A DNA stretch of 40,853 nucleotides, taken from the NCBI GenBank assembly GCA_900555085.1, contig USJU01000001.1, forward strand, positions 1 to 40,853, given 5' to 3'. The notes beneath the pieces are model-generated. The model was not told where the DNA came from and searched no databases. It was given only the letters and a program-made list of their open reading frames with translations. Source of the DNA: an uncultured Clostridium sp. GTDB lineage: Bacteria; Bacillota; Clostridia; TANB77; CAG-508. A program made the position numbers and the translations under genes. This document shows positions 13,235-34,492 of this stretch, one piece after another. Each line of letters starts with the position of its first letter. Position 1 is the first letter of the stretch.

Positions 13235-13251
13235 AATTACTCCTTATATTT

Positions 13252-15604: not shown

Positions 15605-15658
15605 TTCCAAAAAAGAAAGATATTCTTAGTGATTGTTTAAATAATATCTTTTTTGGAA
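15605..15658. promoter_or_regulatory. long inverted repeat upstream of the HTH-Fic gene (terminator of the upstream operon and/or operator)
   Basis: TTCCAAAAAAGA(aag)ATATT ... AATATCTTTTTTGGAA gives stems of 12 + 5 bp. A TATAAT lies just downstream on the minus strand. Confidence 0.45.
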
Positions 15659-15690
15659 TACTGATAATTTATTTCCATACATTATTGTTT

Positions 15691-16992: not shown

Positions 16993-17025
16993 ACTTTCCT
17001 AGCGAAAGCGCATACTCATATAGTT

Positions 17026-17370
17026 CTAGTTCTCTTGTTCTGCGTTTTCGCTTAATATAAAAAGTAATTCATTTTTCATTGATTCAAATTCTTTTATAAT
17101 AGTTTCCAAATTGTTTTCAATATTTTGAACTCTAACTTCAGATATTTTTCCATATTTATATGCAATCAACCTTTCAGCAACTATATAATATGACCAACTC
17201 TCTGAAAATCCCCTATCATTTTCTTCATTATGAACTGCAAAACCTATCGGTAATAAATTATTTCTCATACCAATGGAAACTGCATTGGCTGATATTCCTA
17301 AATAATCTCCTGCAATCTGGCATGTTATTTTAGTTTTATTTCTTATATCATCATCTGTATATTTGCTCAT
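17026..17370 (-). CDS. hypothetical 114-aa protein, possible HTH DNA-binding protein
   Basis: SD GGAGGGAG upstream. The segment ITCQIAGDYLGISANAVSIGMRNNLLP resembles an HTH. Confidence 0.55.
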   Translation of the reverse strand: MSKYTDDDIRNKTKITCQIAGDYLGISANAVSIGMRNNLLPIGFAVHNEENDRGFSESWSYYIVAERLIAYKYGKISEVRVQNIENNLETIIKEFESMKNELLFILSENAEQEN

Positions 17371-17389
17371 TAAACTCCCTCCTATTTTA

Positions 17390-18217: not shown

Positions 18218-18292
18218 AAAATTCTCCTTATTAAAAAAAAGCAAAATAATTATGTAATATATCATTACTCACTTACTTTGCTTTTCTTTTGT

Positions 18293-19186: not shown

Positions 19187-19208
19187 ATAATTTCTCCTTC
19201 AAATTAAA

Positions 19209-19766
19209 TTATTCCTTTTCTCCTTCACTAGACTTTTGTCCTGTTAATTGGCAATATCTCTTCGTTGCCTCTTCATCCTTAGCTAGATTTGCCATAGTTA
19301 ACACATAATTAACATTCGTTTGTGAATCTATTGGTACTTTAGATTCAATCGCTTTTCTCACCAATAAAGTTAATGGTTCACCTATAGCTTGTTTATAGTT
19401 AAATCCTATAAGTTGCATAATTGTAAGTGTCTCAACAGACAATATTTTTTTCATTTTTTCAATTTCAACTTGATCCGGAAGAAATTCTCCAAATATAGGC
19501 AATAAATTATCTGTAATATATTTTATATCATTTTCTGTAATTTTTTGTGAAACTAATTCTTGTTCATATGCTTGAGCAATTCGTTGAATTTCAGCCTTAT
19601 CATTTAATAAATCAGATATTATTTCTTCCAGTTCAGCAATAGTTTCTTTGTCATTTCTTTTTGCTTTACTAGCATTTATTTTCTTTGATATAAAACTTGC
19701 GCCATTTCTAGCAGTTGCTTCAGCTAAATTTGCTGCTAATTGTGCAACAATTTGATTATCATCCAT
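19209..19766 (-). CDS. hypothetical 185-aa helical protein
   Basis: SD GAGGAG upstream. It starts 20 nt after the hsdR stop. No motif recognised. Confidence 0.55.
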   Translation of the reverse strand: MDDNQIVAQLAANLAEATARNGASFISKKINASKAKRNDKETIAELEEIISDLLNDKAEIQRIAQAYEQELVSQKITENDIKYITDNLLPIFGEFLPDQVEIEKMKKILSVETLTIMQLIGFNYKQAIGEPLTLLVRKAIESKVPIDSQTNVNYVLTMANLAKDEEATKRYCQLTGQKSSEGEKE

Positions 19767-19786
19767 TTTTAATTTCTCTCCTCTAT

Positions 19787-22700
19787 TTATTTTACCATTT
19801 CTTTACACTTTAACTCAGCTTGTCTTATAACAGTTTGAACTGCCTTTTCGCTTTTGTTGGGTGGATAATTATATTTAATTAAAAGCTTCTTAATTTCAAT
19901 TCTCATTTTGGCTCTTGCATCTTTTCTAATATCCCAATCTATTGTCATATTACTATTAACCGTTTCTACAAGTTCTTTTGCTATTTGAACTAAGATTTCA
20001 TCTTTCATTAATTCTTTAACTTCTGGATCATCTCCTAATGCATCAAAGAATGCCTTTTCTTCAGTTGATAAATTAAATTCATTTCCTGCTTTTAATTCTT
20101 CTTCAATTTCATTTTTTAAGTTTATTAATTCTTCAATTATTTTTTGTATGTCTTCTACGCTTGTCCTTTCATTATATGTCGCTGCAATCTTTTGGAACTT
20201 TGTTGAAAATTTTTCCATCATAACAACATTCTGTCTTCCTATTTGATTAACATACTCTTTTAAAGCTCTATTCAGTACCTCAACTGCAATATTTTTCTTT
20301 TGCATTTTTGCTAACTTATTTAATATATCATTGCTTAATAATGCCAATTGATTACTGTTGTGTACTTCTCCTATTTGTAACATTTCATCATCTTGTATTG
20401 CTCTTTCTAACATTTGCGCTACATTTGCGTTTATTTCTTTAACGTCTATTCTTTCTCCGCTTAGTTTTGATATGAATGATCTTACAGCTATAAAGAATAA
20501 TATTTCATCTTTTAATTCCTGTGATAATGCTCCTGTGCATAACGCATATAAGCTTTTAACATCATAACTATATTTCATAAATGCTTTTTTAATTTCTTCT
20601 GTTTTGAGCATCAAGTTCGCTCCTGCCATAATAATTTCATACTTATCGCTATCTGTTGTTGTAGCAAAATGTCCATAATAGAATCCTTTAAATAAATCTC
20701 TGATTAATTCAACTTTATCATTTAAAACTTTTACCAATTCACTATTGTCTACAATTTTGCCTTGGTCTCTCTTCGTATATGTTTTCAATGCATCCAGCAA
20801 CCATCTTTTTAGTCCTATATAATCAACAATTAGTCCACCAGTTTTATCTTTATAAACTCTATTAACTCTTGCAATTGCCTGCATTAAGTTATGTGCTTTC
20901 ATAGGTTTGTCTATATACATAGTTCCAAGTCCTGGTACATCAAATCCTGTTAACCACATATCTACAACTATTGCGATTTTGAATTCAGAATCCATATCTT
21001 TAAAATTCACTTCTAGCTGCTTTTTATCTTTTTTAGAGCCTATTGCTTTTTGCATATCTTCGTCATCTTTATTATTAGATGTTATTATCATATTGACTTT
21101 GTTTTTCCATTCTGGTCTAAGTTCTAAGAATTTGTTATACATTGTAAATGCAGATTGTCTTGAATATGCTACAACCATTGCTTTATTAGCCACACTTGTT
21201 TCTATTTCCTCATAATGCTTTATAATATCTTTAACTATCATTTCTAGTCTATCTGGATCTTCTATTATTTGTTTCATTGTAGCCATTGCTTTTTTAGATT
21301 CTGCTATTTTATAATCATCAATACCTTCTTCTGTTTCAAGCATATTGTAATAATCATCTATCTCATCTAATATCTTTTGATTTAGTCCAACTCTAGCCAT
21401 TCTTGATTCATACATAATTGGTACTGTTGCACCATCCATAATTGCTTGTGTCATATCGTATGTATCTATTATATCTCCAAACACATTAGTTGTTGACTTG
21501 TCTTTTGTTTCAACAGGTGTTCCTGTAAATCCAATATATGTTGCATTTGGAAAAGCATCATGCAAATACTTAGCTGTTCCATATTTTTTATATGCTTCCA
21601 TTTTAGCTTTATCAAATTTTATTGTTGCATCTAATCCGTAATGGCTTCTATGTGCTTCATCTACTAAAACTAAAATATCGTCTCTTTGGCTAAATACTCC
21701 TGTTTCTTCTTCAAATTTCTGTAATGTAGTAAAGAATATTCCACCAGATTTTCTGCCTTCTAATTTCTCGTTTAAATCTTGTCTATTTTCAATTTGTACT
21801 GGTTCTTGTTTTAAATATTCAGAGCATTTTGCGAATGTTGTAAATAACTGATTATCTAAATCATTTCTATCTGTTACAACCACTATACTTGGATTATTTA
21901 ATACTTTTATCATATTACCAGCATAAAATACCATTGAAAAGCTCTTTCCACTTCCTTGTGTATGCCAAAGTAATCCAGCTTTTCCCGTTTTGTTATCTAT
22001 TGCATTTTCTGTACTGGCTATAGCTTTCTTAACTCCAAAATATTGATGATATGCTGATAAAATTTTACTATCTTCACTCCATAATATAAAATTACTTATA
22101 ATATCTAATAATCTATCTTTTCTAAGCATTCCATTGAATAGAGTTTTATGGGTAGGCATATTCTCTAATACTTCATCTGTATCTTCAACCTTTTTCCATT
22201 CCGAAAATCTACTCCATGGACTGGTGATAGTTCCTGCTCTTGCTTGTACTCCATCACTTACAATCATAAACTGGTTATAATAGAATAGTGATGGTATATG
22301 TACTTCTTGATAACCTTTTAATTGATTATATCCATCTATTAACTTAACATCTTCTCTTACTGTTGATTTTAGTTCAACAACAACTAAAGGCATACCATTT
22401 ATAAATATAATTATGTCTGGTCTTTTTTCACTATGCTCACTGATTGTATATTGGTTAATTGCTTTGAATGTATTATTTTGGATATTTTCAAAATCTATTA
22501 TTTTAATAGTTTTATATTTTGTTTCTCCATCTTCTTGAATCGGTACAGAAATTCCTTCTAATAAATATTTAGTAAATTGCTTATTGTTTAATATAGTATT
22601 GTTATTGTCTAAGTTTCTAATTGTTCTTATAACTTCTTGTATTTGTTCCAATTCAATTCCTCTATTCATTCTTTCTATTGCTTCCAAAAGCTCTTCTTCT

Positions 22701-22813
22701 AACAATACTTTAGAGAAATCTGTACGTTCCATTTCATATCCATTTATACATTCATATTCTAATTCTTTTAACATGTCCATTGTTACATTTTCTAGTGTTT
22801 CTTCATCAAACAT
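19787..22813 (-). CDS. hsdR: type I restriction enzyme, R subunit
   Basis: 1008 aa. The N-terminal nuclease region contains RPDIIIFINGMPLVVVELK. The SF2 helicase motifs include HTQGSGKS and VLVDEAHRSHY (DEAH). Confidence 0.95.
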   Translation of the reverse strand: MFDEETLENVTMDMLKELEYECINGYEMERTDFSKVLLEEELLEAIERMNRGIELEQIQEVIRTIRNLDNNNTILNNKQFTKYLLEGISVPIQEDGETKYKTIKIIDFENIQNNTFKAINQYTISEHSEKRPDIIIFINGMPLVVVELKSTVREDVKLIDGYNQLKGYQEVHIPSLFYYNQFMIVSDGVQARAGTITSPWSRFSEWKKVEDTDEVLENMPTHKTLFNGMLRKDRLLDIISNFILWSEDSKILSAYHQYFGVKKAIASTENAIDNKTGKAGLLWHTQGSGKSFSMVFYAGNMIKVLNNPSIVVVTDRNDLDNQLFTTFAKCSEYLKQEPVQIENRQDLNEKLEGRKSGGIFFTTLQKFEEETGVFSQRDDILVLVDEAHRSHYGLDATIKFDKAKMEAYKKYGTAKYLHDAFPNATYIGFTGTPVETKDKSTTNVFGDIIDTYDMTQAIMDGATVPIMYESRMARVGLNQKILDEIDDYYNMLETEEGIDDYKIAESKKAMATMKQIIEDPDRLEMIVKDIIKHYEEIETSVANKAMVVAYSRQSAFTMYNKFLELRPEWKNKVNMIITSNNKDDEDMQKAIGSKKDKKQLEVNFKDMDSEFKIAIVVDMWLTGFDVPGLGTMYIDKPMKAHNLMQAIARVNRVYKDKTGGLIVDYIGLKRWLLDALKTYTKRDQGKIVDNSELVKVLNDKVELIRDLFKGFYYGHFATTTDSDKYEIIMAGANLMLKTEEIKKAFMKYSYDVKSLYALCTGALSQELKDEILFFIAVRSFISKLSGERIDVKEINANVAQMLERAIQDDEMLQIGEVHNSNQLALLSNDILNKLAKMQKKNIAVEVLNRALKEYVNQIGRQNVVMMEKFSTKFQKIAATYNERTSVEDIQKIIEELINLKNEIEEELKAGNEFNLSTEEKAFFDALGDDPEVKELMKDEILVQIAKELVETVNSNMTIDWDIRKDARAKMRIEIKKLLIKYNYPPNKSEKAVQTVIRQAELKCKEMVK

Positions 22814-22823
22814 AATTTGCCCC

Positions 22824-23459
22824 CTACAATTTTATTTGATTTTCAATATTATTTATAATGTTTTTTTCTATAATTGCCTCATACAATTGTTTTATTTTAT
22901 CATATTCAGTATATAAATCTTCTCTAAATTTTCTTTCACCAAATTCTTTTTGTAATTTAATAAACTCTGTCGAATTTTTACTATTTTTTTCAAGAATCCT
23001 ATTTAATATAATTTGCTCCTTATACATTAATCTTAATAGTTCTTGATATTCGTATACAAACTCTTTGATTAAATTAATACAATCTCCGTTAAATAAAAAT
23101 TTCATCTCAATTGATAATTTCTTAATCTCTTCTAATTTTATTAAAAAATTTTGTCTAATATCCTCTTGTTCAACATTGTCTATTATTGTACCAATATCCT
23201 TTAGATATATATTATTGGTTAAGCTATGAAATAAAACAGTTACATCTATAAAATGATCATAATCTTCTTTATCCATCAAATGTTTGCTTTCCTTAAAAAG
23301 CGAGATTAAACCATTTATAGTAATAAATCTATCCACTCTTTTATCAAATAATTGATGCTTATTACTAATTGTTATTTGTCTATGAGTTTGCCACAGTGCA
23401 ATAACAGCTATAATTGCAGTTATTATTGCAAAAATATTGTTTCCAATAAATTGTCCCAT
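22824..23459 (-). CDS. hypothetical N-terminally membrane-anchored protein embedded between hsdS and hsdR
   Basis: SD AAGGAG upstream. Single TM helix NIFAIITAIIAVIALW, followed by a helical region of about 180 aa. Its stop is 10 nt before the hsdR start. Confidence 0.6.
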   Translation of the reverse strand: MGQFIGNNIFAIITAIIAVIALWQTHRQITISNKHQLFDKRVDRFITINGLISLFKESKHLMDKEDYDHFIDVTVLFHSLTNNIYLKDIGTIIDNVEQEDIRQNFLIKLEEIKKLSIEMKFLFNGDCINLIKEFVYEYQELLRLMYKEQIILNRILEKNSKNSTEFIKLQKEFGERKFREDLYTEYDKIKQLYEAIIEKNIINNIENQIKL

Positions 23460-23495
23460 ATTATCATCTCCTTATACAAATCACCATTTGTCTGA

Positions 23496-24662
23496 CTAAA
23501 TTTCTATTCTGTCTAGGTCTATTTCTCCATTCATCAGTTTTGGCAATAATGTGTCTCTTAATTGTTCTAATGTAAGATTTTCTTCGCAATTAAATATTAT
23601 TTTATAATAAACTGAATTTAACTTTTCATATATATCTTTTAAATTATTTTCTGTAATATCATTTACTATAATATTTTCTATATCATTTGAACTTATGTTA
23701 GGTTGTGCACTTCCATATCCTTTAGAATTTAACAATGTTTGAAATTCATCTGAAAGAGCTAATATCTTTAAATACAATTCTTTTTCCTTACTTCTTCCTC
23801 TAATAACACCAACACGTTGGTTTAGATAGTATTTATCAAACCCATATATAAAACCAGTTTTTCCCAATTCAGCTCCAGTCATAGCAATTGCAACATCGCC
23901 TTTGTTTAATTGAAATTTATTATCAATTTTATTTGCAATTTCATCTTCTACAAACTGAGAGTTAAGAACATCTGCATTTATTTCATTTCTTAAATTTTTA
24001 ATTTTAATAATTCTATTATTAGTTTTATTTTCTAATAAATCTTTACTTTTAAATGCATATCCTCCTTGAATTTTAGCAAAATTGCTTAATGGTACTTCTG
24101 CATCTTCTTTTTTATTATTTATATAGTTAATAGCAAATTCAAACAAATTATCATTTATCTGATTATTCAGCTCTATTCTTTTATCTATACTAGACAAAAC
24201 TTTACCAATTTTAATCTGCTCTTCATAGCTTGGTATTAACATTTCAGTATTTTTTACAACATCTAATTGTACTCTCTGTCTTCCTGATGTTCCAGTCATA
24301 GATTTAATTGCAATTTCTCTAAATTTTGGACTTATTGCAAGATAAAAAATAAAATCTTCATCTGAAATATTCTTTTTACTTCTCATAACAATATATTCTG
24401 TAGAACCAAAACCAACTTCTTCTTCATCTAAAATTGTAACTTTTGATGTTTTTCCATTTTCCAAGCATGGTGTTATTCTTGCCAATAAGGTATCTCCATT
24501 TCTAAATTTCATACCTCCATTGTATTTTTCTATATCAAAAGAATTTATATATTTTGAAAACACGCCCAATTTGTCCATTGGAATTTTTTTAGATACAGTT
24601 CCTTTTTTTAATGTTTCAGTTGGATTAAATTCTATTATATCCTCTAATTTTTTATATTCCAT
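23496..24662 (-). CDS. hsdS: type I restriction enzyme, S (specificity) subunit; start placed at MEYKKLEDI
   Basis: Two target-recognition-domain halves are separated by conserved helical spacers (LIPSYEEQIKIGKVLSSIDKRIELN; LEQLRDTLLPKLMNGEIDL). GGAGG lies 9 nt before the ATG at 24662. The gene overlaps the hsdM stop. Confidence 0.9.
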   Translation of the reverse strand: MEYKKLEDIIEFNPTETLKKGTVSKKIPMDKLGVFSKYINSFDIEKYNGGMKFRNGDTLLARITPCLENGKTSKVTILDEEEVGFGSTEYIVMRSKKNISDEDFIFYLAISPKFREIAIKSMTGTSGRQRVQLDVVKNTEMLIPSYEEQIKIGKVLSSIDKRIELNNQINDNLFEFAINYINNKKEDAEVPLSNFAKIQGGYAFKSKDLLENKTNNRIIKIKNLRNEINADVLNSQFVEDEIANKIDNKFQLNKGDVAIAMTGAELGKTGFIYGFDKYYLNQRVGVIRGRSKEKELYLKILALSDEFQTLLNSKGYGSAQPNISSNDIENIIVNDITENNLKDIYEKLNSVYYKIIFNCEENLTLEQLRDTLLPKLMNGEIDLDRIEI

Positions 24663-26154
24663 ACCCAATAGCCTCCAAGTTCTTCTTAATTTTTTCTTCC
24701 AACTTATGAGACTCTTCAAATTGTGCTTTTAATTCAGTTGTTATTGTTTTCATTTTTTCTTCAAAAGGTATTCCATCGTCTTCTTGTTCTTCTGTTCCTA
24801 CATATCTACCTGGTGTAAGGACATAATTGTTTTCTTCTATTTCTTTTATTGTAGATACTTTACAGTATCCTGCTACATCTTCATAATTTTGATTGTTTTG
24901 GAAATTATGATATGTATCTGCAATTTTAGATATATCGTCTTCATTTAGTTCTCTTAATTTTCTTGTTACCATTGTTCCAAAATTTCTTGCATCTATAAAC
25001 AATGTTTTTCCTTTTTGTTTCTTGTTTCTATTTAAAATCCATATACTACAAGGTATTGTAACTGTGTAAAATAAATTAGATGGCATTGATAATATACAAT
25101 CTACTAAATCTGCCTCTATTAAATTTTTTCTGATTACCTCTTCTTGTCCCCCTGCTGATAAAGAGCCATTTGCAAGTATTATTGCTGCTTTACCATTCAT
25201 AGATAATTTTGATACCATATGTTCAACCCAAGCAAAGTTAGCATTTCCTTTTGGTGGTATTCCATATTTCCATCTAGGATCATCTAATAATTTTTCTTGT
25301 CCCCAGTCACTAATATTGAATGGAGGATTTGCTAATACAAAATCTGATTTTAAGTCTTTGTGTAAATCATTATGAAATGTATCGTCTGCGAACTTTCCCA
25401 ATCCGTCATTATTTATCCCTCTAATAGCTAGATTCATCTTCGCTAATTTCCATGTTGTTGGATTTTTTTCTTGTCCATATATAGTTAAATTTCTTGCATT
25501 ACCATTGTGTCTGTGAATGAATTTTATACTTTGTACAAACATTCCCCCAGAGCCACATGCAGGGTCATAAATTCTACCTTGATATGGTTCAAGAATCTCA
25601 ACCATTGTTCTAACTAAGCAGGCTGGTGTATAGAACTCTCCACCTTTTTGTAACTCGTTAGATGCAAATTGTCCTAAGAAATATTCATATATTCTTCCTA
25701 AAATATCTTTATCTTGTGCTTCTTTACTTCCAATTTTTATATTAGTAAATAAATCTATAATTTCCCCTAAATTTACATTTCTATAATTGGGGCTATTAAA
25801 TTCTTTAACTAAAACACCTTTTAAAGATGGATTTTCTCTTTCTATTTCTTCCAAAGCATCATCAATAATTTGTCCTATGTGAGGATCCTTAGAATGAGCA
25901 TTTAAATATTCCCATCTAGCTCTAGCTGGAACATAAAATACATTATCTGCCTCATAACTGTCTCTATCTTCTTCAAGTCCATAACCATCTTTTACTAAGA
26001 TTTGATATTTCTCTTCAAATGCATCAGAAATATATTTTAAAAATATTAATCCTAATATTATAAATTTATAATCCGAAACAGGAACAGCTCCTCTCATTTT
26101 ATCTGCTGATTCCCATAATTTTTTTTCTAGTTTTATTAATTCTTCTTCCTTCAT
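24652..26154 (-). CDS. hsdM: type I restriction enzyme, M subunit (N6-adenine DNA methyltransferase)
   Basis: HsdM N-terminal domain (LWESADKMRG). AdoMet motif DPACGSGGM. Catalytic motif NPPF (LANPPFN). Confidence 0.95.
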   Translation of the reverse strand: MKEEELIKLEKKLWESADKMRGAVPVSDYKFIILGLIFLKYISDAFEEKYQILVKDGYGLEEDRDSYEADNVFYVPARARWEYLNAHSKDPHIGQIIDDALEEIERENPSLKGVLVKEFNSPNYRNVNLGEIIDLFTNIKIGSKEAQDKDILGRIYEYFLGQFASNELQKGGEFYTPACLVRTMVEILEPYQGRIYDPACGSGGMFVQSIKFIHRHNGNARNLTIYGQEKNPTTWKLAKMNLAIRGINNDGLGKFADDTFHNDLHKDLKSDFVLANPPFNISDWGQEKLLDDPRWKYGIPPKGNANFAWVEHMVSKLSMNGKAAIILANGSLSAGGQEEVIRKNLIEADLVDCILSMPSNLFYTVTIPCSIWILNRNKKQKGKTLFIDARNFGTMVTRKLRELNEDDISKIADTYHNFQNNQNYEDVAGYCKVSTIKEIEENNYVLTPGRYVGTEEQEDDGIPFEEKMKTITTELKAQFEESHKLEEKIKKNLEAIGYGI

Positions 26155-26243
26155 TTTTGCACCTCAAATATTTATAATAATTCTATTATATTTTATATCA
26201 CAAAACGACAAATTTCTCAACAGGTACTTCTAAATATTTACAA

Positions 26244-26867
26244 TTAATTCCTATGAAAAAAATGATCATATATATAGCCTGCCTCTATATACTTTTCTGT
26301 CAATTTCATTTTCTTCTTTTCTAATAGTTCTAGATATTTTTGTTTAAACACATTTTTACAAATCCATTTTACACCTTCTTTTGAAATTACAATTTTATTA
26401 TTTATTAAAAATTTGTATTCTTCTAATTCACTATCACACATTCTTTTAATGGCTTTTCTTATAGTAATTTCTTCTCTATTAAAATATTTGCATAGTTGTT
26501 TTATATCCATATCTTCATTCCACCAATTTTCTTCATGCTCTATTTTTAATAATTCTTCATATTGTTTTATTCTATCTTCAAAAAATTCTACATCAGCATC
26601 AATTAATGATTTTTCTTTATTAAAATACACTTGTAACAACCATGCATATCCTTCATCTAAAATAAAATATTTTCTATTTTTTACTTTCTCACTTCTCCAT
26701 CTGCAAGTTGGATGCTTTTTTAACATTACATTTACAGCTTTTCTTAAATCTCCATGTGTTATTTCTTTTCCACATTTAGTAGTAACACCCAACAATTTAA
26801 TTCTCTTTAAAATTTTATTATAAGATACAAAAATACTCTCTAAAGCTTGCTCTGAATCTCTGTACAC
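26244..26867 (-). CDS. hypothetical 207-aa protein (GTG start) with two similar internal segments
   Basis: SD AAGGAAG lies 9 nt before the GTG. The repeated-looking segments are KYFILDEGYAWLLQVYF and IVISKEGVKWICKNVF. Function unknown. Confidence 0.5.
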   Translation of the reverse strand: MYRDSEQALESIFVSYNKILKRIKLLGVTTKCGKEITHGDLRKAVNVMLKKHPTCRWRSEKVKNRKYFILDEGYAWLLQVYFNKEKSLIDADVEFFEDRIKQYEELLKIEHEENWWNEDMDIKQLCKYFNREEITIRKAIKRMCDSELEEYKFLINNKIVISKEGVKWICKNVFKQKYLELLEKKKMKLTEKYIEAGYIYDHFFHRN

Positions 26868-26897
26868 TTTTCATCACTTCCTTACTATAAAAATCTA

Positions 26898-27045
26898 TTA
26901 ATGCTAGTTTACAAAGCATTAATAACAAGCAAAATTTATTTTGCTCGAATATAGGTAGTATTTTTTAGTACCTAATATTCGCCAGCGTGGTGTTTTGACA
27001 CCATTTTTGCTGTTTAGGGAAAAATCCCTAAAACCATTTTTGGCT
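26898..27045. other. array of consecutive hairpins in a locally GC-richer intergenic region (candidate ori, ssi or small RNA)
   Basis: Hairpins: TTAATGCT/AGCATTAA (26898-26922), AGCAAAAT/ATTTTGCT (26928-26945), GAATATAGGTA/TACCTAATATTC (26947-26980), GGTGT/ACACC (26989-27002), TTTAGGGA/TCCCTAAA (27013-27032). There is also the direct repeat ACCATTTTTG (27000-27009 and 27033-27042). Confidence 0.4.
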
Positions 27046-27182
27046 CTCCGAGGGAATTTTTTTATTCATTTTTTCATAATTTTTGTTTAAATTTTAGAAA
27101 AAGTCTGAACAAAAAATTCAAACTTTTCCTATTTACAATTGTTATAATTTATATTATAATTTTATTAGGTTTTAAGATTGAG

Positions 27183-28037
27183 TTAGCAAATAGTTTGGTC
27201 GCTTATGCTAACTTTTTCTTTTGCTTTTATTTCTTCTGCAATTGAAATTCCATAACACATTTCATTCAGAACTTCAACAATTTCTTCTGAAATTTCTGTA
27301 TCATCTTCAGTAGATAATTGTTCAATTAATTGCTCTTTATTATATCTTGTTGTAATAACAATTGGTAATTCATTATCATATCTATTACTAATAATTTTAT
27401 TTAATTTTTCTAAAGCCCATTTGCTTAAATTTTCACTACCAAAATCATCAATAATTAACATATCTACATTAGAATATAGTCTAATAATTTGCGTTTCTGA
27501 TAGTCCATCTTTATTAAACGATTCTTTAATTTTATCAATTATAGAGCTACTTTTTTCCATTAATACAATTTTGTTTTGTTCAATCATTTTATTAGCTATA
27601 CAAGCTGCTAAATATGTTTTTTCATAGCCTATATTTCCATAAATAATCAGTCCATTTTTCATCTCTGATTCAATACATAAATCTGTAAATTTTATTAGTT
27701 GATTTATAATAGATGTATCATCATATGTATCAATAAGATTTTCAAAATTATACTTTTGTAATCTTTTTTTCATATAGTTATCTTTATAAATACTATTTAT
27801 AATTTTTCTATACTTTTCTTGTCGCTGTTTTTCTTCTTGTTCAAAATCAAATTTTTTCCAAAATTGAATTGCTTTTTCACAATTACATCTTTCATATTCA
27901 ATCATACTTTTATCATAATTTACATATAAATAATCGAATCCAATTGGCTTTAAATTTTTATTACAAAATCCACATTTTGCACCTTCATTGGTGATAACTT
28001 TATAATTTGAATTCTTTAAATCCACTTCTATTCTCAT
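27183..28037 (-). CDS. DnaC/IstB-like AAA+ helicase-loader homologue with an N-terminal Cys-cluster
   Basis: Walker A-like GNIGYEKT and Walker B MLIIDDFG. N-terminal CGFC...CNC. It follows a replisome-organiser gene. Confidence 0.7.
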   Translation of the reverse strand: MRIEVDLKNSNYKVITNEGAKCGFCNKNLKPIGFDYLYVNYDKSMIEYERCNCEKAIQFWKKFDFEQEEKQRQEKYRKIINSIYKDNYMKKRLQKYNFENLIDTYDDTSIINQLIKFTDLCIESEMKNGLIIYGNIGYEKTYLAACIANKMIEQNKIVLMEKSSSIIDKIKESFNKDGLSETQIIRLYSNVDMLIIDDFGSENLSKWALEKLNKIISNRYDNELPIVITTRYNKEQLIEQLSTEDDTEISEEIVEVLNEMCYGISIAEEIKAKEKVSISDQTIC

Positions 28038-28509
28038 CTCCTTCTTTTTCTATTTTATTTCTAATCTTTTTCTCTTCTTTAGTGTTACGTTGCGTTACTG
28101 TAACGTTACTTTTTTCTTTTTCACTTTTCATTTTTTCACGATATTTTTGTTGCCTTAAACAATTTTGTAGTCTAATTTCTTCAAGTTTATCAGCACTTTG
28201 ATACTTAGACCAGTTTTTGATTTTATAAAAATTATCTTCTATAATAATCATTTTTAATTCTTCAAACTTTTCCAAACATTTTGTGATTTTTTTCTTAGAC
28301 TTTCCCATAATCTTCGAAAATTCCTCAACTGTCATTGGCTTATCTTCTGTTATTGATAATCTACCTTGATAATTACATTTCATTGCTATTGTTAAAAGTT
28401 GTATCCATACTCTAATTAGTGTATCTCCATCTCTTTCACTTTCTAGCAATTTTATTTTGTTATTATCAAAAAAATCCGTAGATAGTTTTAACCATTGTAA
28501 ATTAGTCAT
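28000..28509 (-). CDS. phage-type replisome organiser (N-terminal domain family)
   Basis: MTNLQWLKLSTDFFDNNKIKLLESERDGDTLIRVWIQLLTIA matches my recollection of the phage replisome organiser N-terminal domain. It is followed by a DnaC-like gene. Confidence 0.65.
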   Translation of the reverse strand: MTNLQWLKLSTDFFDNNKIKLLESERDGDTLIRVWIQLLTIAMKCNYQGRLSITEDKPMTVEEFSKIMGKSKKKITKCLEKFEELKMIIIEDNFYKIKNWSKYQSADKLEEIRLQNCLRQQKYREKMKSEKEKSNVTVTQRNTKEEKKIRNKIEKEGDENRSGFKEFKL

Positions 28510-28537
28510 ATCCTCCTTTCCTCACTTTCTTTAGAAT

Positions 28538-28735
28538 CTAATCTATCGATTCTTGTTCCATTTTTGTTAAATATTCATCTAAAGCTTGTACTCTAAATAA
28601 ATATTTTCCACCAACTTTTGAACATGGTATTTGTTTTCTTCTTACTAATTGATTTATCAACCAGTATGATATTCCTAAATACTCAGATGCCTCTTTCATT
28701 GTTAATGTTGTCCTTTGTACTTTTTGTAGTTCCAT
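28538..28735 (-). CDS. excisionase-family / MerR-like HTH DNA-binding protein (65 aa)
   Basis: LTMKEASEYLGISYWLINQLVRRKQIPCSKVGGKYLFRVQALDEYL is typical of the Xis/AlpA-type HTH. Confidence 0.75.
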   Translation of the reverse strand: MELQKVQRTTLTMKEASEYLGISYWLINQLVRRKQIPCSKVGGKYLFRVQALDEYLTKMEQESID

Positions 28736-28767
28736 AATATCACCTCCTGTCTTTTTTGTAATTTAAT

Positions 28768-28797
28768 ATTGACTTTTGTTAACAAATGTATTATATT
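28768..28797 (+). promoter_or_regulatory. sigma-A-type promoter for the 347-aa ORF, overlapped by the palindrome TTTGTTAACAAA
   Basis: TTGACT (28768-28773), a 15-18 nt spacer containing TTTGTTAACAAA (28775-28786), then TATTAT/TATATT. Confidence 0.5.
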
Positions 28798-28885
28798 GAT
28801 TATAGTTAACTTTGTAAATACTTTTTAGGTTATTTTGATAGCAGGTTAACTTTATTAAATTTCATAAACTGTTAACGGAGGAATT

Positions 28886-29929
28886 ATGAACAAATTAAAA
28901 ATTGATGAACCTATTAGTATATTTGTTTCAAAGAACGAAACACTTACACATAAAGCATTTTTATATGCAAAAACAAAATCATCTAAGCCAAAATATTATA
29001 ATCTAAAAAACATTAATACAGGTTATTTTACTATTAATACTACAACTACCACTCAGACACTTTGTACTGAACTTATTAACTTTTTAAATTGTAATTTTGA
29101 TAATTATGATGATTGTTTTATGTGGTTTACTAAGTTTTTTACTTCATACATCATATATACTGGTGAAGATGATATAAATAAATTTGAAGTAAATAAACTT
29201 TATTCTTTTAATAAAGTAAAAGAATTATTTGAAAAATATTTTGAAGAAATAAAAAATGACTCAAAACGTGGTCAAAAACTATTATCAGAATTTGTTGATT
29301 ATATATTTAACATTAATAATATTGAAGAAATTAAAGATTTTACTTCTAAAATAAGATTTTATATTTATTATAACTCTCATGCTAAAAAGCTAGATAGATT
29401 TATAAATAACTACTTTTCTATGCCACAAGGCTTTTCTTTTAGAACAATATCTGGTATTAAAGGATCCACAGAAAAAGATTTAATCAAATTCTTTAATTCT
29501 GCTCCAGATTATGATGTTGAACCAGATTATAGTTCTAGTAATGACAATATTTATGGAATTTTATATGTTACATTGTTTCAATTTGTACTTAATAATAAAT
29601 ATCTTATAAAAAAATGTAAGAATTGTGGTAAATACTTTATAATAGATAATGCACGCATTAATTACTGTAATAATTTATACAAAGGAAAACAAACTTGTAG
29701 AGATATCGGAAACCAAATTGCTCAAAGAATTAAACAAGAAAATGAGATTGTTTATGGTAAATATCGTAAGATTTATGCAAAAAAAGCAATGCTAGTAAAG
29801 CGTAATCCTGATATAGAAGTTTATAAGATTGATTATGAAAATTGGAAAAAAGAAGCTAAAGAATTTATGGATGCCATTAGATCTAATGAGAAAACTTATA
29901 AAGAATTTGATAAGTGGTTAGATAAATAG
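28886..29929 (+). CDS. hypothetical protein with a C-terminal Cys-cluster (CKNCGKYF...YC...CRD), resembling proteins seen in Firmicutes mobile elements
   Basis: 347-aa ORF with SD GGAGG upstream. A putative zinc-ribbon is followed by a basic helical tail. The family assignment (DUF6076-like) is from memory only. Confidence 0.5.
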   Translation: MNKLKIDEPISIFVSKNETLTHKAFLYAKTKSSKPKYYNLKNINTGYFTINTTTTTQTLCTELINFLNCNFDNYDDCFMWFTKFFTSYIIYTGEDDINKFEVNKLYSFNKVKELFEKYFEEIKNDSKRGQKLLSEFVDYIFNINNIEEIKDFTSKIRFYIYYNSHAKKLDRFINNYFSMPQGFSFRTISGIKGSTEKDLIKFFNSAPDYDVEPDYSSSNDNIYGILYVTLFQFVLNNKYLIKKCKNCGKYFIIDNARINYCNNLYKGKQTCRDIGNQIAQRIKQENEIVYGKYRKIYAKKAMLVKRNPDIEVYKIDYENWKKEAKEFMDAIRSNEKTYKEFDKWLDK

Positions 29930-29950
29930 TAATGATGTTGAATCATTACT
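29928..29950. terminator. bidirectional hairpin between convergent genes
   Basis: AGTAATGAT-GTTGA-ATCATTACT, a perfect 9-bp stem. Confidence 0.55.
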
Positions 29951-29952
29951 AT

Positions 29953-31656
29953 TTATCTATTACCAAAATTAATTCCAAATAAAGTGTCTTCTTGTGAAAT
30001 TCTTTGTGCTTCTTCATATTTTTTTAATACAGCTTTATTTAATTCATTTTTAACTATTTGATCATCATTAACACAGCATATATATTGAAATCTATTATTT
30101 CCTATGATTTCATTTGTTAAATTTAGAAATTTCGCTACATATTGTTTATCTGTCGATTCAAATACTACACTATCATGTATTAAAAATATTGGAAATCTAT
30201 CACTATTAAAGTCTGCTAATACTAAGTCATATACTGCAATACAACCTTTTAAATATCCACTGCTTAATTTTCTAGGTATTTCCCAATCATAATTATATCC
30301 TCTTGTAGCATAATTTCCTGTATTTTTACATTCCATAATAAGTTTAGCATCTTCATCAAAGATTTTTCTTATATATTCTTTAAACTTATTATTTATAATC
30401 TTAAAATTATTACAATTATCATTTTTTTCTAACTTTTTTATTATTGATTTTACTTTCTCTTTACAACTAGTGTCTATTTGATTTAATGCTATGTATACAT
30501 CTAATTGTTTTTCTAAATCACTTTTCTCAATTTTTAAATTAGTTATGATCTCATTTGTACTATAATAGTCATCTAAATATCCTTTTTTATCAAATTCTTT
30601 TAAAATATTTATTTTCTTTAAATTTATATCATCAATTTTTGATTCTATTTCTTTTACTTTATTTTGATCACTTTCTATTAAACTTTTTACTCTTTCATTT
30701 CTATCTTTGTTTAATTTAATATGATATTTCTGAATTTCTTCTAATGTTTTCATTTCACCATTTGTAACAAAAAATTTAGATTCTTCCAAGATCTCTCTTA
30801 TTTGTTCAATACCTAAAAGACTTTCATTGTTTATAATCTTTTTATTAGACTCTATGTAGTTTTGATAAATATATTTTTCTTTAATTAGATTTGATAATTC
30901 TGCATTTATTTTATGAATATCATTTATATTCTCTTTTTCGTTTAATGTCAGTTCAAATTTTTTAAGCTTTTCTTCATTTTCTTTTATCTCTTTATCTAAG
31001 TTTCTAATTTTACTTTTTAATGTATTTTGTTTTTCTTTTTTCCATATAATATCAGTCTCTTTTATTTCTTTTAACTTTAAGAATGACTCTCTTTCTTCAA
31101 TTAGAGCTTTTAATTCTATGATAGGTTCTATTGGTATATTCATAAGAAAAGAGTTTTTTAATTGAGTTACTATATTAGTTTCCATAGCATGTGTTTTATA
31201 TATATTATTAAATGCAAACGCCCCTCTCTTCATAAATGGTGAAATTAAATTTCTAAATGATACCTCTTCATTTTCAATTCCAAATATTAATTTGTTTAAT
31301 TTATTTTTTACCCAATCAATGGTTTTAGGTTCATCTTCTAAGACACCATCACCTAATAGATTTTCTTTATCTATAATTTTGATTTTAGTAACATTTTGAG
31401 GGGTCCTTGATAAAGTAATAGTCTTATTTTCAATTACTAAGTCAACACTAAATTCTTCTTTATTTAAGTCTTCGTATGTAGATATTTTTTCCGTACTTGA
31501 TCCAAAACAAAAATTTATTATTTGAATTAAACTAGTTTTACCAGTTCCATTATTGCTTTTTCCGTTAACAGACTCTGATACAAGAAAATTAAATCCTTCG
31601 CTAAACTCAATTGTTTTAAACGTTTTTAATGTTCGACTATATATCTTTTTAATCAA
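29953..31656 (-). CDS. ABC-3C system ABC ATPase (DUF2326/YydD-like, SMC-type with a coiled-coil insert)
   Basis: Walker A NNGTGKTS, signature-like LSSGYLKG and Walker B IFLIHDS. A long K/E/N-rich coiled-coil lies between them. It overlaps the upstream gene by 8 nt. Confidence 0.8.
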   Translation of the reverse strand: MIKKIYSRTLKTFKTIEFSEGFNFLVSESVNGKSNNGTGKTSLIQIINFCFGSSTEKISTYEDLNKEEFSVDLVIENKTITLSRTPQNVTKIKIIDKENLLGDGVLEDEPKTIDWVKNKLNKLIFGIENEEVSFRNLISPFMKRGAFAFNNIYKTHAMETNIVTQLKNSFLMNIPIEPIIELKALIEERESFLKLKEIKETDIIWKKEKQNTLKSKIRNLDKEIKENEEKLKKFELTLNEKENINDIHKINAELSNLIKEKYIYQNYIESNKKIINNESLLGIEQIREILEESKFFVTNGEMKTLEEIQKYHIKLNKDRNERVKSLIESDQNKVKEIESKIDDINLKKINILKEFDKKGYLDDYYSTNEIITNLKIEKSDLEKQLDVYIALNQIDTSCKEKVKSIIKKLEKNDNCNNFKIINNKFKEYIRKIFDEDAKLIMECKNTGNYATRGYNYDWEIPRKLSSGYLKGCIAVYDLVLADFNSDRFPIFLIHDSVVFESTDKQYVAKFLNLTNEIIGNNRFQYICCVNDDQIVKNELNKAVLKKYEEAQRISQEDTLFGINFGNR

Positions 31657-31858
31657 TCCTTATCACCCACTCATCATTTATTTCAACTTTATTTATTGCA
31701 TATAGGAACGCTAAAATAGCATCCATATCTTTAGTTTTTATATTAGTATTTTTATACAAATCTTCTACTTTTATTTTTCCATTTATTGAATTTAGCACAT
31801 CAATACTATATTTCAATAATGATTTTTCAAAAGGAACATCTTTATTTGGTAATATCAT
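31649..31858 (-). CDS. ABC-3C system middle component (69 aa)
   Basis: A small ORF translationally coupled on both sides: ATGA overlap with the HNH gene and an 8-nt overlap with the ATPase gene. Size and position match the middle component of the published ABC-3C architecture. Confidence 0.6.
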   Translation of the reverse strand: MILPNKDVPFEKSLLKYSIDVLNSINGKIKVEDLYKNTNIKTKDMDAILAFLYAINKVEINDEWVIRID

Positions 31859-32592
31859 ACTTCAAACACATCACATTCTTCAAAATAATTACATATAATA
31901 ATCCCTGCTGGGAAAACATTAGAAAAATCATTTCCTACAACTCTTCTAATTAAATTGGTAAACTTTTGTACATTACTGATATCTTTGCATTGCTCTAGTC
32001 TATATAAACTTATAATATTATGCCTTAAATCTGTTCTTTCACTTTGAGACAATGTTTCTAAAAATTCTTTAAAAATTGGTATATATCTAATATACATGTT
32101 AATTTGATCTTTTATTTCGATTAAAGTATTCTTATTTATTTTTTCTTCCACTTTTATACTATAATATTTTTCTATTATGCTTGTATGATTACATTTTTCA
32201 CTTAAATCTTTACAAATTTTTGAGAATTTGTTATATAAATCTGGATTTGCATATTCTCTGGCAATTTTAATATTATTCTCATATTCTTTTTTTATTTCCT
32301 GTAACATTTCAGTTGTGTATTTTTCACTATATTTATCTATTTTAGTATGGCAAGTTGGACATAGTAATAAAATATTAGATTCATCATTTAATTCATCTAT
32401 AGATTTATTAGGATTATATCTTTTAGTTGCTTTTTGGAGATCTTCAATATGTGCAAATTCTCCAATAAATCCCTCTTCTTCATAATATCCTATTTTTTGC
32501 TTACACATACAGCAATTTCCATCGCTTTTCATCCATGACAATTTCCTTTTAACTATTACACTTACATCAATTCTTTTTCCCAATATTATCAC
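31855..32592 (-). CDS. ABC-3C system effector: N-terminal HNH endonuclease plus a C-terminal helical coupling domain
   Basis: CCMCKQK...GEFAHIEDL...SNILLLCPTCHTKID fits the CxxC / H / N / CxxCH HNH pattern. The ORF-track start is GTG. An alternative ATG is at 32532. Confidence 0.75.
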   Translation of the reverse strand: MIILGKRIDVSVIVKRKLSWMKSDGNCCMCKQKIGYYEEEGFIGEFAHIEDLQKATKRYNPNKSIDELNDESNILLLCPTCHTKIDKYSEKYTTEMLQEIKKEYENNIKIAREYANPDLYNKFSKICKDLSEKCNHTSIIEKYYSIKVEEKINKNTLIEIKDQINMYIRYIPIFKEFLETLSQSERTDLRHNIISLYRLEQCKDISNVQKFTNLIRRVVGNDFSNVFPAGIIICNYFEECDVFEV

Positions 32593-32805
32593 CTTAACTT
32601 TTTATAATTCATCATAAAATCTCATTTTAATACGTATAAATCAAGTATTATACTATTTTTTTATTCACTTTACTAATTTTGTCGTATTATATCATATTTT
32701 CTGTAAATAATCCAGTATTTTCAAAGGATTTTAGCCTTCAAATTTTCGACATTTTTTTACATTTTATTACATTTATAAATTTTTTAAGTTTATTTTTGAA
32801 ATCTA

Positions 32806-32834
32806 TTGCAATTTGTTAACTATTGTTGTATAAT
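32806..32834 (+). promoter_or_regulatory. sigma-A-type promoter of the integrase gene with GTTAAC in the spacer
   Basis: TTGCAA (32806-32811), a 17-nt spacer containing TTGTTAAC, then TATAAT (32829-32834). A second TTGTTAAC lies at 32839-32846. Confidence 0.6.
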
Positions 32835-32903
32835 ATCTTTGTTAACTAATATATAAATACTCCTCCCACCCATAGGCATACTTAAAAGGAGGTGAAATAA
32901 GTA

Positions 32904-34097
32904 ATGGCTGGGAGCATAGAAAAAAGAGGAAAAAACAGTTACAGACTAACACTATCCGAAGGATTTGACCTAAATGGAAAACCTATGATACATAGGAAAA
33001 CGGTACACGGAACTAAAAAAGATGCAGAAGTTGAACTAGCAAAATTTGTTACTGAAGTACAAAATGGTTTAGTAATTGATGGTAAATCTCTTAAATTTTC
33101 TGAATTTACTGAAATATGGAAAAGAGATTATGGTTCAAAAGAACTTGCTCCATCAACATATAAAAGATATTGTAGAATGTTAGAAACAAGACTTTTACCA
33201 TACTTTGGACATTTTTATATTAACAAAATCAAACCAACTGACATTATGAAATTCTATGACTTACTTGAAAATGATACTCAGTTAGTTAGGAAAAAAGGTA
33301 ACAATGGTTCAAAAACAAAAAAGCCCTTATCTGGTAAAACAATTTTAGAGCATCACAGATTATTAAGAGCAATGCTTCATAAAGCAGTTTATTGGCAATT
33401 AATAGTGGCGAATCCTGCTGAACGTGTTCAACCACCTAAAGCTAGAAAACCAAAAAGAAGATCTTATGATGATGAGCAAACTAAAATATTACTAGAAAAT
33501 TTAGAACTATTATCTAGCGAAGATACTAAATACAAAGTTGCAATCATCCTTACAGTATTTACTGGTGTTCGTTTAGGCGAGTTAATGGGACTAGAATGGC
33601 AAGATGTTGATTTAAAAAAAGGTATTATCAGTATTAATCGTTCTAGTCAGTACCTGGCAGATATGGGAGTCTTCACAAAAGTTCCAAAAACAGAAAGTTC
33701 CATTAGAGAAATTGCAATACCTGAATTTATCATTTCTTTACTTGAGGAATATAAGTTATGGTATGAAGAACAAAAATCGATTTACGGCGAATTATGGACT
33801 AATTCTGATAGGTTATTTGTACAGGCGGATGGCAAACCAATGCACCCTTCTACAATTAGCAAATGGTTTGTTAAATATGTTGGTCAAATAGGATTACCTG
33901 TAATTAATTTTCACGGATTAAGACATACAAATGCAAGTTTACTAGTTGCACAAAATATTGATATAGCAGTAATTTCTGCGAGACTAGGTCATGCACAAAT
34001 AAGTACTACACTTGACTTTTATGTGCATCCACTACTTTCTCATAATAGAAAAGCTGGCTATGCACTAGAAAACTTATTATTACCAACAAGGTCTTAA
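32904..34097 (+). CDS. int: tyrosine-type site-specific recombinase / integrase
   Basis: 397 aa with an N-terminal SAM-like domain. Catalytic residues are in context: GVRLGEL (R), HGLRHTNAS (HxxR), LGHAQISTTLDFYVH (H...Y). Confidence 0.93.
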   Translation: MAGSIEKRGKNSYRLTLSEGFDLNGKPMIHRKTVHGTKKDAEVELAKFVTEVQNGLVIDGKSLKFSEFTEIWKRDYGSKELAPSTYKRYCRMLETRLLPYFGHFYINKIKPTDIMKFYDLLENDTQLVRKKGNNGSKTKKPLSGKTILEHHRLLRAMLHKAVYWQLIVANPAERVQPPKARKPKRRSYDDEQTKILLENLELLSSEDTKYKVAIILTVFTGVRLGELMGLEWQDVDLKKGIISINRSSQYLADMGVFTKVPKTESSIREIAIPEFIISLLEEYKLWYEEQKSIYGELWTNSDRLFVQADGKPMHPSTISKWFVKYVGQIGLPVINFHGLRHTNASLLVAQNIDIAVISARLGHAQISTTLDFYVHPLLSHNRKAGYALENLLLPTRS

Positions 34098-34330
34098 TTT
34101 GAACTTTTTTCTAATTTTCACAAATTACAAATTTTCACGATGTAAAAAGGTAAAAAACTTTGAGATTATATATCTCTTTCCCAAAAGTTTTTTACTATAA
34201 ATTTAAAAATTTTATTGCAATTTACATTATTAAATTATGTTAAAATTTAAAATATTTATTTATAACATTGTAATGTAAGTATAAAATTTTAATGAATTTT
34301 TATTGATATTTATGGCATTTGAGGTATTTA

Positions 34331-34362
34331 TTTTACCCAATTTTTACCCAATTTGACATAAC
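34331..34362. repeat. 32-nt arm-type repeat (right copy)
   Basis: Identical to 10633-10664. Confidence 0.65.
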
Positions 34363-34446
34363 AATGCAATCTTTGAGCATTATTGTAACCAATTTTTAGT
34401 CAATAAAAAATCACTAAAACCGTTACAGTTCTAGTGATATATTCTT

Positions 34447-34492
34447 TGGTTGCGGGGGTAAGACTCTAACTTACGACCTTCGGGTTATGAGC
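34447..34492 (-). pseudogene. orphan 3' half of a tRNA-Met(CAT)-like sequence (anticodon loop to CCA) containing the attR core
   Basis: The minus strand reads GCTCATAA-CCCGA-AGGTC-GTAAG-TTAGAGT-CTTAC-CCCCGCA-A-CCA. No matching acceptor 5' strand or D-arm lies upstream. The T-loop has A where the conserved C56 is expected. Confidence 0.6.
34477..34492. repeat. attR core (16-bp direct repeat)
   Basis: Identical to 10511-10526. Confidence 0.75.

Follow-up and report, generated by a model that had tools for sequence, protein, structure and literature searches.

A probable short-type Lamassu (ABC-three-component) operon with an HNH effector on a mobile defence island of an uncultured Clostridium

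What do three overlapping genes encode that lie back to back with an integrase gene in the genome of an uncultured Clostridium sp.? The stretch of DNA that contains them, referred to as the window in the following, comprises 40,853 nucleotides (assembly GCA_900555085.1, contig USJU01000001.1, positions 1 to 40,853 of the forward strand), and the genes are read from its minus strand as three successive open reading frames (ORFs) within positions 29953-32592. The initial annotation had seen in them an ABC-three-component (ABC-3C) conflict system, made up of an HNH nuclease as the effector, a small middle component and a coiled-coil ABC ATPase. This assignment is correct, and profile searches with both DUF2326 and the middle-component families give matches above their cut-offs; an ABC-3C/Lamassu operon is recognisable from motifs alone. 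The family itself is already represented in Pfam, in PADLOC (as a candidate only), in RefSeq protein names and in the 2025 Lamassu survey. Considering the evidence described below, we find it likely that the operon constitutes a complete short-type Lamassu (ABC-3C) system, that its HNH effector is controlled by sequestration and release, and that it travels as cargo of a mobile island.

The ABC-3C concept is said to go back to Krishnan and colleagues in 2020, and we applied its defining features in the form in which Pfam encodes them. These are an ATPase with a DUF2326-type head half, the respective nucleotide-binding motifs and a coiled-coil insert, a small middle-component gene between effector and ATPase, and an effector that combines a variable N-terminal domain with a C-terminal domain (CTD) typical of the family. 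All of them are found in the operon, the last one with a CTD that scores below threshold in the window protein itself. In the literature, ABC-3C, type II Lamassu (LmuA/LmuC/LmuB) and DdmABC are treated as one superfamily. Its sole component that can be aligned across all Lamassu systems is LmuB, and these systems are split into a long type, with an LmuB of about 800 residues, and a short type, with one of about 600 residues (PMC12663957). In the short type, the Walker B motif follows the pattern hhhhD[Q/S/T/E] and zinc hooks occur in zero to two copies (PMC12663957 and preprint). HNH domains are an effector specific to the short type, whereas the validated systems cited or tested there use Cap4, Lipase or Hydrolase-Protease domains as effectors rather than HNH (PMC12663957).

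The translational coupling of the three genes is legible in the sequence just as it had been described. Gene 1 (31855..32583, minus strand) encodes the HNH effector of 242 residues, the LmuA-equivalent, and its stop codon overlaps the ATG start codon of gene 2 in an ATGA at 31855-31858. Gene 2 (31649..31858, minus strand) encodes the 69-residue middle component, the LmuC-equivalent, and shares eight nucleotides (31649-31656; ...AGG ATT GAT TAA in the one frame and TTG ATT AAA... in the other) with the TTG-initiated gene 3 (29953..31656, minus strand), which encodes the coiled-coil ABC ATPase of 567 residues, the LmuB-equivalent. The ORF of gene 1 can be extended to a GTG at 32592, yielding 245 residues, and this is where the initial annotation had let it begin. 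The ORF is present, but the start of the gene is probably the TTG at 32583, nine nucleotides downstream, because the homologs mostly comprise 242 residues and because R4 and K12 at their N-terminus are conserved. A Shine-Dalgarno sequence, AAGGTGA (32595-32589), stands five bases ahead of this TTG, and the GTG at 32592 falls within it. All residue numbers of gene 1 given here refer to the 242-residue form.

The trio consists of real, intact genes and is not a chance pattern. In DNA of 21-25% GC, the ORFs run for 567 and 242 codons without a stop. Measured against a relative of 82% ATPase identity, the ratios of nonsynonymous to synonymous substitution rates (dN/dS) are 0.11, 0.23 and 0.10 for genes 1, 2 and 3, respectively, and the gene order is kept in eight independent, distant loci. 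Purifying selection acts on each of the three genes.

Gene 3 carries the homology to LmuB. As had been read from its motifs, it encodes an SMC-like ATPase of the DUF2326 type, in which a coiled coil interrupts the ATPase head. The N-terminal head half (residues 1-176; 31129..31656, minus strand) contains the Walker A motif NNGTGKTS at residues 35-42, and the C-terminal head half with the DUF2326 region (residues 434-567; 29956..30357, minus strand) contains the signature-like LSSGY and the Walker B motif FLIHD. Between the two lies an antiparallel coiled-coil insert of about 255 residues (residues ~177-433; 30358..31128, minus strand), and the AlphaFold2 (AF2) model, with a predicted local distance difference test (pLDDT) value of 86, accordingly shows an ABC head that is split by a hairpin of helices. 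In Pfam, DUF2326 matches residues 432-564 (E 1.5e-21, 77 bits at a cut-off of 28.7), and the N-terminus is of the AAA_23/SMC_N type. The best full-length match in PADLOC is PDC-M68B (5.5e-72), and the LmuB profile PDLC03859 covers residues 2-537 (E 3e-13).

In an alignment with 22 ATPase homologs, the Walker A residues N36, G39 and K40 are invariant, as are G467 of the signature-like motif and H494 and D495 of Walker B, while S465 is found in 20 of the 22. The residue that follows the Walker B aspartate is a serine rather than a glutamate (S496 in 21/22), and a CxxC zinc hook is absent from the coiled coil of all 22 proteins. With a length of 567 residues, a Walker B motif reading FLIHD-S and a coiled coil devoid of CxxC, the ATPase displays the features of the short type. 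An [F/Y]311-H312...R319 motif, located close to where the coiled coil turns at its distal end, is conserved in the 22 homologs.

A Foldseek search of the PDB with the model of gene 3 ranks YydD of Bacillus subtilis first (9a6c_A; E 1.3e-22, TM-score 0.58, 19% identity), and LmuB chains of several Lamassu cryo-EM entries appear on ranks 2-8 (9uxh_F, 9hqx_B, 9hqu_A, 9ux7_A and 9nyg_B; E 1.4e-12 to 3.6e-10), interspersed with an archaeal Smc head (5xei; 5.6e-11) and one condensin chain. Rad50, cohesin, Smc5/6 and JetC follow below LmuB, at about 1e-9 or weaker. The appearance of Rad50 and SMC heads among these matches, together with weak N-terminal P-loop matches to PtuA (7.6e-5), AriA (6.6e-4), AAA_21 (0.042) and SMC_N (0.0013), could indicate that the operon is no Lamassu system at all, but a relative of Septu (PtuAB), a system of the OLD/AbiL/Gabija kind or a housekeeping repair protein of the Rad50/RecN/RecF type. 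The P-loop matches, however, are confined to the Walker A region (about residues 1-133), whereas the full-length matches are PDC-M68B, LmuB and DUF2326, and LmuB chains outrank nearly all Rad50 and SMC chains structurally. Furthermore, a Toprim domain or an Mre11-like partner is absent; three features, the order of the genes, MC7 and CTD11 (the last two described below), are specific to ABC-3C; and the location on a mobile island and the patchy distribution likewise speak against a non-Lamassu identity, which we regard as hardly credible.

Two of these candidates were considered individually and rejected. Septu, composed of the ATPase PtuA and the HNH nuclease PtuB, resembles the operon in that an ABC-type ATPase and an HNH nuclease occur together in a defence setting, but it consists of two genes, the ATPase followed by the HNH nuclease, without a middle component or a CTD docking domain; in the window, the PtuA match extends only over residues 14-79, and the genes stand in the opposite order and are accompanied by a middle component. 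An ATPase of the OLD/AbiL/Gabija or RecF/RecN kind, of which the initial annotation had named OLD/AbiL and RecF-like proteins as an outcome that would speak against its own assignment, lacks support from the searches: there is no Toprim domain, the matches to AAA_21 and SMC_N are weak, and NCBIfam, in which none of the three proteins has a model, returned nothing relevant.

The second gene fits the position that it holds. Its product matches the ABC-3C Middle Component 7 family (MC7) in Pfam (E 1.1e-8, 35.4 bits at a cut-off of 27), and also MC6 (3.5e-5), in agreement with its annotation as the middle component. No model of the PADLOC scan matched it, and a single-sequence phmmer search with this protein, like one with gene 3, found nothing relevant in the PDB.

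Gene 1 encodes a two-domain protein, with PDC-M68A (4.7e-27) as its best full-length match in PADLOC and HNH_2 (27.4 bits, cut-off 21) as its match in Pfam. The motif set CCMC...FAHIE...N...CPTCH belongs to an HNH (beta-beta-alpha-Me) nuclease domain (residues ~10-90; 32314..32556, minus strand), in which C24, C27, E42, A44, H45, N70, C75, P76, C78 and H79 are invariant in 19 homologs. Based on this conservation, we assign a four-cysteine zinc site (C24/C27/C75/C78) and the catalytic His45, in addition to N70 and H79. In the AF2 model (pLDDT 83), the N-terminal HNH domain is followed by an all-helical C-terminal half, and both parts of the annotated architecture are thus recovered. The helical domain (residues ~108-242; 31858..32262, minus strand) is presumed to mediate docking and oligomerisation, and we attribute it to the CTD11/CTD10 family. 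In the window protein itself, CTD11 remains below threshold (E 0.088, 13.8 bits at a cut-off of 27.7); when the 19 aligned homologs were searched singly, HNH_2 was found in 19/19, CTD11 in 11 and CTD10 in six, and one or the other of the two CTD families in 17. The C-terminal tail YFEECDVFE is conserved, with F, C, V and F invariant even when a CTD10 relative is included. Together with the F/Y311-H312-R319 motif of the ATPase, this tail might contribute to an interface within the complex.

The same architecture recurs in distant relatives. We compared eight neighbourhoods of ATPase homologs (L003, L005, L006, L008, L016, L017, L018 and L019, with 55, 45, 27, 27, 25, 23, 26 and 23% identity to the window protein, in this order), of which the distant ones were taken from contigs encoding ATPase homologs, as a scan of genome contigs with the ATPase yielded only two close loci. 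All eight keep the order of a CTD-bearing protein (182-303 residues), an MC6/MC7 protein (65-80 residues) and a DUF2326 ATPase, and their genes are mostly joined by short start/stop overlaps, typically of 4 nt. By contrast, the N-terminal domain of the effector varies: it is an HNH domain in five loci (L003, L005, L006, L016 and L017), a stretch of about 170 residues without family assignment in two (L018 and L019), and it is essentially missing in a locus from Listeria (L008). Judged from these sequences, effectors are varied here as modules, which is the defining logic of ABC-3C/Lamassu. In L018, the trio of CTD10 protein, MC6 and DUF2326 ATPase (positions 2360-5237) is flanked by hsdS and hsdR within a type I restriction-modification (R-M) operon.

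The Listeria systems with DUF2326 (L008:4226-6689 and L009; Listeria sp. FSL L7-1509 / L. immobilis) deserve a separate remark, in that their upstream protein of 182 residues corresponds approximately to the C-terminal domain alone. They recall the 'effector-less' short Lamassu clade O (PMC12663957).

How closely, then, does the operon resemble those Lamassu systems whose structures have been solved? The short (type II) Lamassu/DdmABC examples are Vc-Cap4 from Vibrio cholerae and LmuACB from Salmonella enterica (PDB 9nyg, 9uxh, 9hqu/9hqx). They share with the operon the order of effector, small middle component and coiled-coil ABC ATPase, an ATPase of about 600 residues with a residue other than glutamate after the Walker B aspartate, an effector composed of an N-terminal enzyme and a C-terminal docking domain, and the location in a defence island; among structures solved by experiment, LmuB is the one whose fold comes closest to the ATPase of the operon; a zinc hook is absent both here and in LmuB of V. 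cholerae. The differences lie in the families of the individual parts. The effector is an HNH nuclease here and a Cap4/PD-(D/E)xK nuclease there, its CTD is of the CTD11/10 rather than the CTD7/12 family, the middle component is MC7, with 69 residues, rather than MC3, and the ATPase belongs to DUF2326 rather than to DUF3732.

Several results weigh against the view that the operon is a short Lamassu system with the corresponding mechanism. In a direct comparison with PDB sequences, the profile of the gene 3 family reaches LmuB only marginally (E 0.025-0.49, amid coiled-coil noise), and we therefore relied on the fold comparison; there, the TM-scores against LmuB are low (0.38-0.44), partly because coiled coils are flexible. 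For the other two components, homology to the characterised systems (MC3; CTD7/CTD12) was not detected: the MC7 profile did not find a solved LmuC among the PDB sequences, the CTD profile did not find the C-terminal domain of a solved LmuA, and the Foldseek search of the PDB with the whole effector did not return an LmuA chain. With its 69 residues, the middle component may also be too small to copy every contact of LmuC. Likewise, the HNH-bearing short Lamassu clade (PMC12663957) need not be exactly the DUF2326/MC7 family. PDC-M68 (A and B), which is effectively the same family as the window operon, is listed by PADLOC solely as a computational 'phage defence candidate', and a functional study of DUF2326 or PDC-M68, or indeed any publication in which PDC-M68 is named, was not found in the searchable literature. 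The absence of LmuC and LmuA-CTD matches is expected, because in the published survey, too, LmuA and LmuC proved impossible to align from clade to clade. Homology in these two parts is not family-defining, yet its absence limits the transfer of mechanism.

The initial annotation had considered trigger and mechanism of ABC-3C systems to be experimentally uncharacterised. For the family, this does not hold, as cryo-EM structures, a trigger and a release mechanism have been described, whereas it seemingly holds for the clade of DUF2326, MC7 and HNH. The structures show an LmuA1B2C1 'sequestration' complex, where the C-terminal domain of LmuA is gripped by LmuC and by a pair of kinked coiled coils from LmuB. 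The complex binds DNA ends in vitro, LmuB is enriched at a phage replication origin in vivo, and activity in vivo depends on the ATPase. Upon activation, LmuA is released and assembles into a tetramer, which creates the active site of the nuclease.

If the operon worked accordingly, translational coupling would deliver its three proteins together, and two folded-back copies of the ATPase and one MC7 protein would clamp the helical C-terminal domain of a single effector molecule, keeping its HNH domain monomeric and inactive. The complex would survey DNA and would be triggered by aberrant structures of phage or plasmid replication, such as free ends, hairpins or origin intermediates. ATP-dependent engagement of the ATPase heads would then open the complex and free the effector, and freed effectors would oligomerise through their C-terminal domains and thereby unite their HNH domains into an active nuclease, as in Cap5 tetramers. 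This nuclease would degrade DNA indiscriminately and abort the infection. In this model, stoichiometry, trigger, release, oligomerisation and abortive outcome are all taken over by homology from the solved Lamassu systems, while the context of the island and the relative whose trio is embedded in a type I R-M operon point to an anti-phage or anti-plasmid role.

The reference to Cap5, the HNH-SAVED effector of CBASS (PDB 8fm1, 8fmf, 7rwk, 7rwm), is founded on the homology of its HNH domain, which has the same CxxC...H...N...CxxCH layout. A phmmer search of the PDB matches the HNH domain of gene 1 to Cap5 (8fm1_A, E 5.3e-7), and Foldseek superimposes it on 8fmf_A with a root-mean-square deviation of 2.2 A over 110 columns (E 5e-4). 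Cap5 has been solved as an apo dimer and as a ligand-bound, activated tetramer, which fits activation by assembly. In contrast to Cap5, the effector of the operon has no SAVED sensor domain, and whereas Cap5 is cued by a cyclic nucleotide, this effector would be activated by its release from the ATPase complex.

A closer comparison for the ATPase is provided by YydD-YydB of B. subtilis, known from an integrative model based on crosslinking mass spectrometry (PDB 9a6c). YydD is the top structural match of the ATPase, and the whole effector weakly matches YydB (9a6c_B; E 0.42, prob 0.97, 143 columns, with the aligned region unspecified). The comparison suggests that the operon and YydD-YydB may share a DUF2326-type lineage and a physical contact between effector and ATPase. 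YydB, on the other hand, is a protein of 481 residues, and its similarity to the effector is limited to this weak match; a functional study of YydBCD was not found in the searchable literature.

The stable contact between effector and ATPase in this integrative model, within the DUF2326 lineage, is also compatible with a divergent mode of 'detect-and-cut', in which the HNH domain would remain bound and cut only the foreign DNA that is sensed, in the manner of SbcCD or Septu and without release, oligomerisation or cell death. CTD11 and MC7 have no detectable similarity to the solved CTD7, CTD12 and LmuC (MC3), and therefore the geometry of sequestration need not be conserved; besides, a middle component of 69 residues is tiny, and Lamassu is thought to have descended from SbcCD. 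However, the HNH domain belongs to the Cap5 type, and CBASS Cap5 is, according to the titles of its PDB entries, a non-specific nuclease activated as a tetramer. Moreover, the presence of N-terminal domains other than HNH on the same CTD10 fits a generic release better than a precise positioning on DNA, and the authors of the Lamassu studies propose release and oligomerisation as general. On balance, we consider cutting in the bound state very improbable and retain sequestration and release as the likely mode of action.

As to its genomic context, the operon is transcribed divergently from a tyrosine integrase gene (32904..34097, plus strand; Pfam Phage_integrase, 6.5e-25, and Phage_int_SAM_3), which itself lies outside the system, and it forms the first, integrase-proximal cargo of the element. 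The host belongs to the low-GC Firmicutes and is probably a gut Clostridium. Beyond the integrase, a direct repeat of 16 nt, CCTTCGGGTTATGAGC, is located at 34477..34492, and its left copy at 10511..10526 is the putative other att site. Six metagenomic contigs, of which at least one comes from a sample labelled human gut, share this block at >=99.5% identity up to about position 34491 and continue into six different flanks beyond. Because the six copies diverge exactly at the end of the repeat, the carrier is, as the sequences indicate, a mobile integrative defence island of about 24 kb (~10511..34492, with putative boundaries), which is not confined to one site. The island is evidently active.

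This setting had been cited from the outset as support for an anti-phage role or one against mobile genetic elements, and the defence load of the element is indeed considerable: based on Pfam and PADLOC matches, it includes a type I R-M system (hsdM, hsdS and hsdR), a PDC-S18/DUF5655 protein (18293-19186, minus strand; 1.7e-106), a helix-turn-helix (HTH)-Fic protein that is SoFic-like (PDC-S04; 14622-15560, minus strand; 8.9e-106), PD-T7-3 (13252-14559, minus strand; E 3.7e-127) and an AbiA-like reverse transcriptase recognised by the AbiA profile in two ORFs (11228-12775 and 12824-13234, minus strand).

The same setting raises the question whom the operon serves. A system of identical Lamassu architecture could mainly benefit the element, either as a module for addiction or stabilisation or by acting against competing plasmids and mobile elements. 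It is fixed cargo beside the integrase at no fewer than six insertion sites, with at least 99.5% identity, and Lamassu/DdmABC is known to eliminate plasmids and to be toxic upon over-expression. Its relatives also point in this direction, as they occur on 23 plasmids, where RefSeq names them 'ABC-three component system protein', 'middle component 6' and 'DUF2326 domain-containing protein', but are found in none of 50,697 phage records. However, relatives at 45-55% identity are situated between housekeeping genes with no integrase nearby, and therefore the trio is not tied to the element. In addition, the neighbouring cargo is classical anti-phage defence, and a role in the service of the element would be compatible with anti-phage activity. 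As the main function of the operon, we judge such a role to be unlikely, and we favour defence by a short-type Lamassu system. Overall, the ATPase family is large, with 4,328 clusters at 50% identity for E <= 1e-3 and 1,609 for E <= 1e-30, almost all with a length of 565-600 residues.

The boundaries of the operon are shared with its neighbours on both sides. Upstream, the intergenic region (32593..32903), which the operon on the minus strand shares with the divergent integrase gene, contains the Shine-Dalgarno sequence described above and, read from the minus strand, two boxes that match TATAAT perfectly, at 32691-32686 (preceded by TGa) and at 32652-32647. They are candidate promoters only, and a scan of this AT-rich DNA with the sigma-70 consensus was uninformative, with 29 matches where 28 are expected. 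Downstream, a near-perfect hairpin (29915..29965) spans the stop codon of the ATPase gene and is shared with a convergent gene of the DUF6076 family. It has a perfect stem of 18 bp, extendable to 22 pairs, and a folding energy of -23.8 kcal/mol (z -9.45; equalled by 0 of 200 shuffled sequences). The hairpin is possibly a bidirectional terminator, but a U-tract is absent on either side of it.

The DUF6076 protein (28886-29929, plus strand; 347 residues, with a cysteine-rich C-terminal part) is always encoded adjacent and convergent to the operon within the element. Since its gene is absent beside the operon in other genomes, it is probably part of the backbone of the element and not of the system. 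Also located on this side of the operon are genes for an Xis-like HTH protein, a phage replisome organiser and a DnaC/IstB-like protein.

Within the island, a number of further observations can be made. In the AbiA-like reverse transcriptase, the ORF of 136 residues covers positions 30-111 of the profile and that of 515 residues covers positions 142-585, and the split could represent either a frameshifted pseudogene or a two-part gene. An ORF of 211 residues (22824-23459, minus strand) without Pfam or PADLOC match lies between hsdS and hsdR; because it is embedded in the R-M operon and each of the six further copies of the element has kept it, it is a 'guilt-by-embedding' candidate for a defence or accessory gene. 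Four more ORFs of the island have no assignment (15691-16992, encoding 433 residues, 17026-17370, 17390-18265 and 19209-19766). At the right end of the element, the minus strand of 34446-34492 (GCTCATAACCCGAAGGTCGTAAGTTAGAGTCTTACCCCCGCAACCA) resembles a tRNA in its 3' half and includes a CAU anticodon loop, T-arm and CCA. ARAGORN found no intact tRNA anywhere in the window, and the fragment may be the relic of a former tRNA attachment site that is carried along by the element. Just beyond the island, in the chromosomal flank, a glmS ribozyme/riboswitch (35248-35400, plus strand; Rfam RF00234, 83.4 bits) is located upstream of glmS (35443-37266).

Given that the family has been catalogued and that the mechanism has been solved for its Cap4-type members, the gain from this operon is incremental. 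It is a compact HNH-type member of 2.7 kb from a Clostridium-like gut genome, where it resides on a well-delimited island, and its interest lies in the questions of whether release and oligomerisation extend to the DUF2326/MC7 branch and to a Cap5-like HNH nuclease, and of what such systems sense in Firmicutes. For these questions, the window operon or YydBCD of B. subtilis offers a convenient test case. It appears doubtful to us, albeit worth considering, that the lineage of DUF2326, MC7 and CTD10-11 assembles or is triggered differently from the DUF3732-type Lamassu systems; such differences may concern the stoichiometry around the 69-residue middle component, a different nucleic-acid cue or an HNH domain that acts while bound. 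If this were true, the DUF2326/MC7 lineage would represent a mechanistically distinct branch of SMC-like immunity, and YydBCD of B. subtilis would be a ready model for its study.

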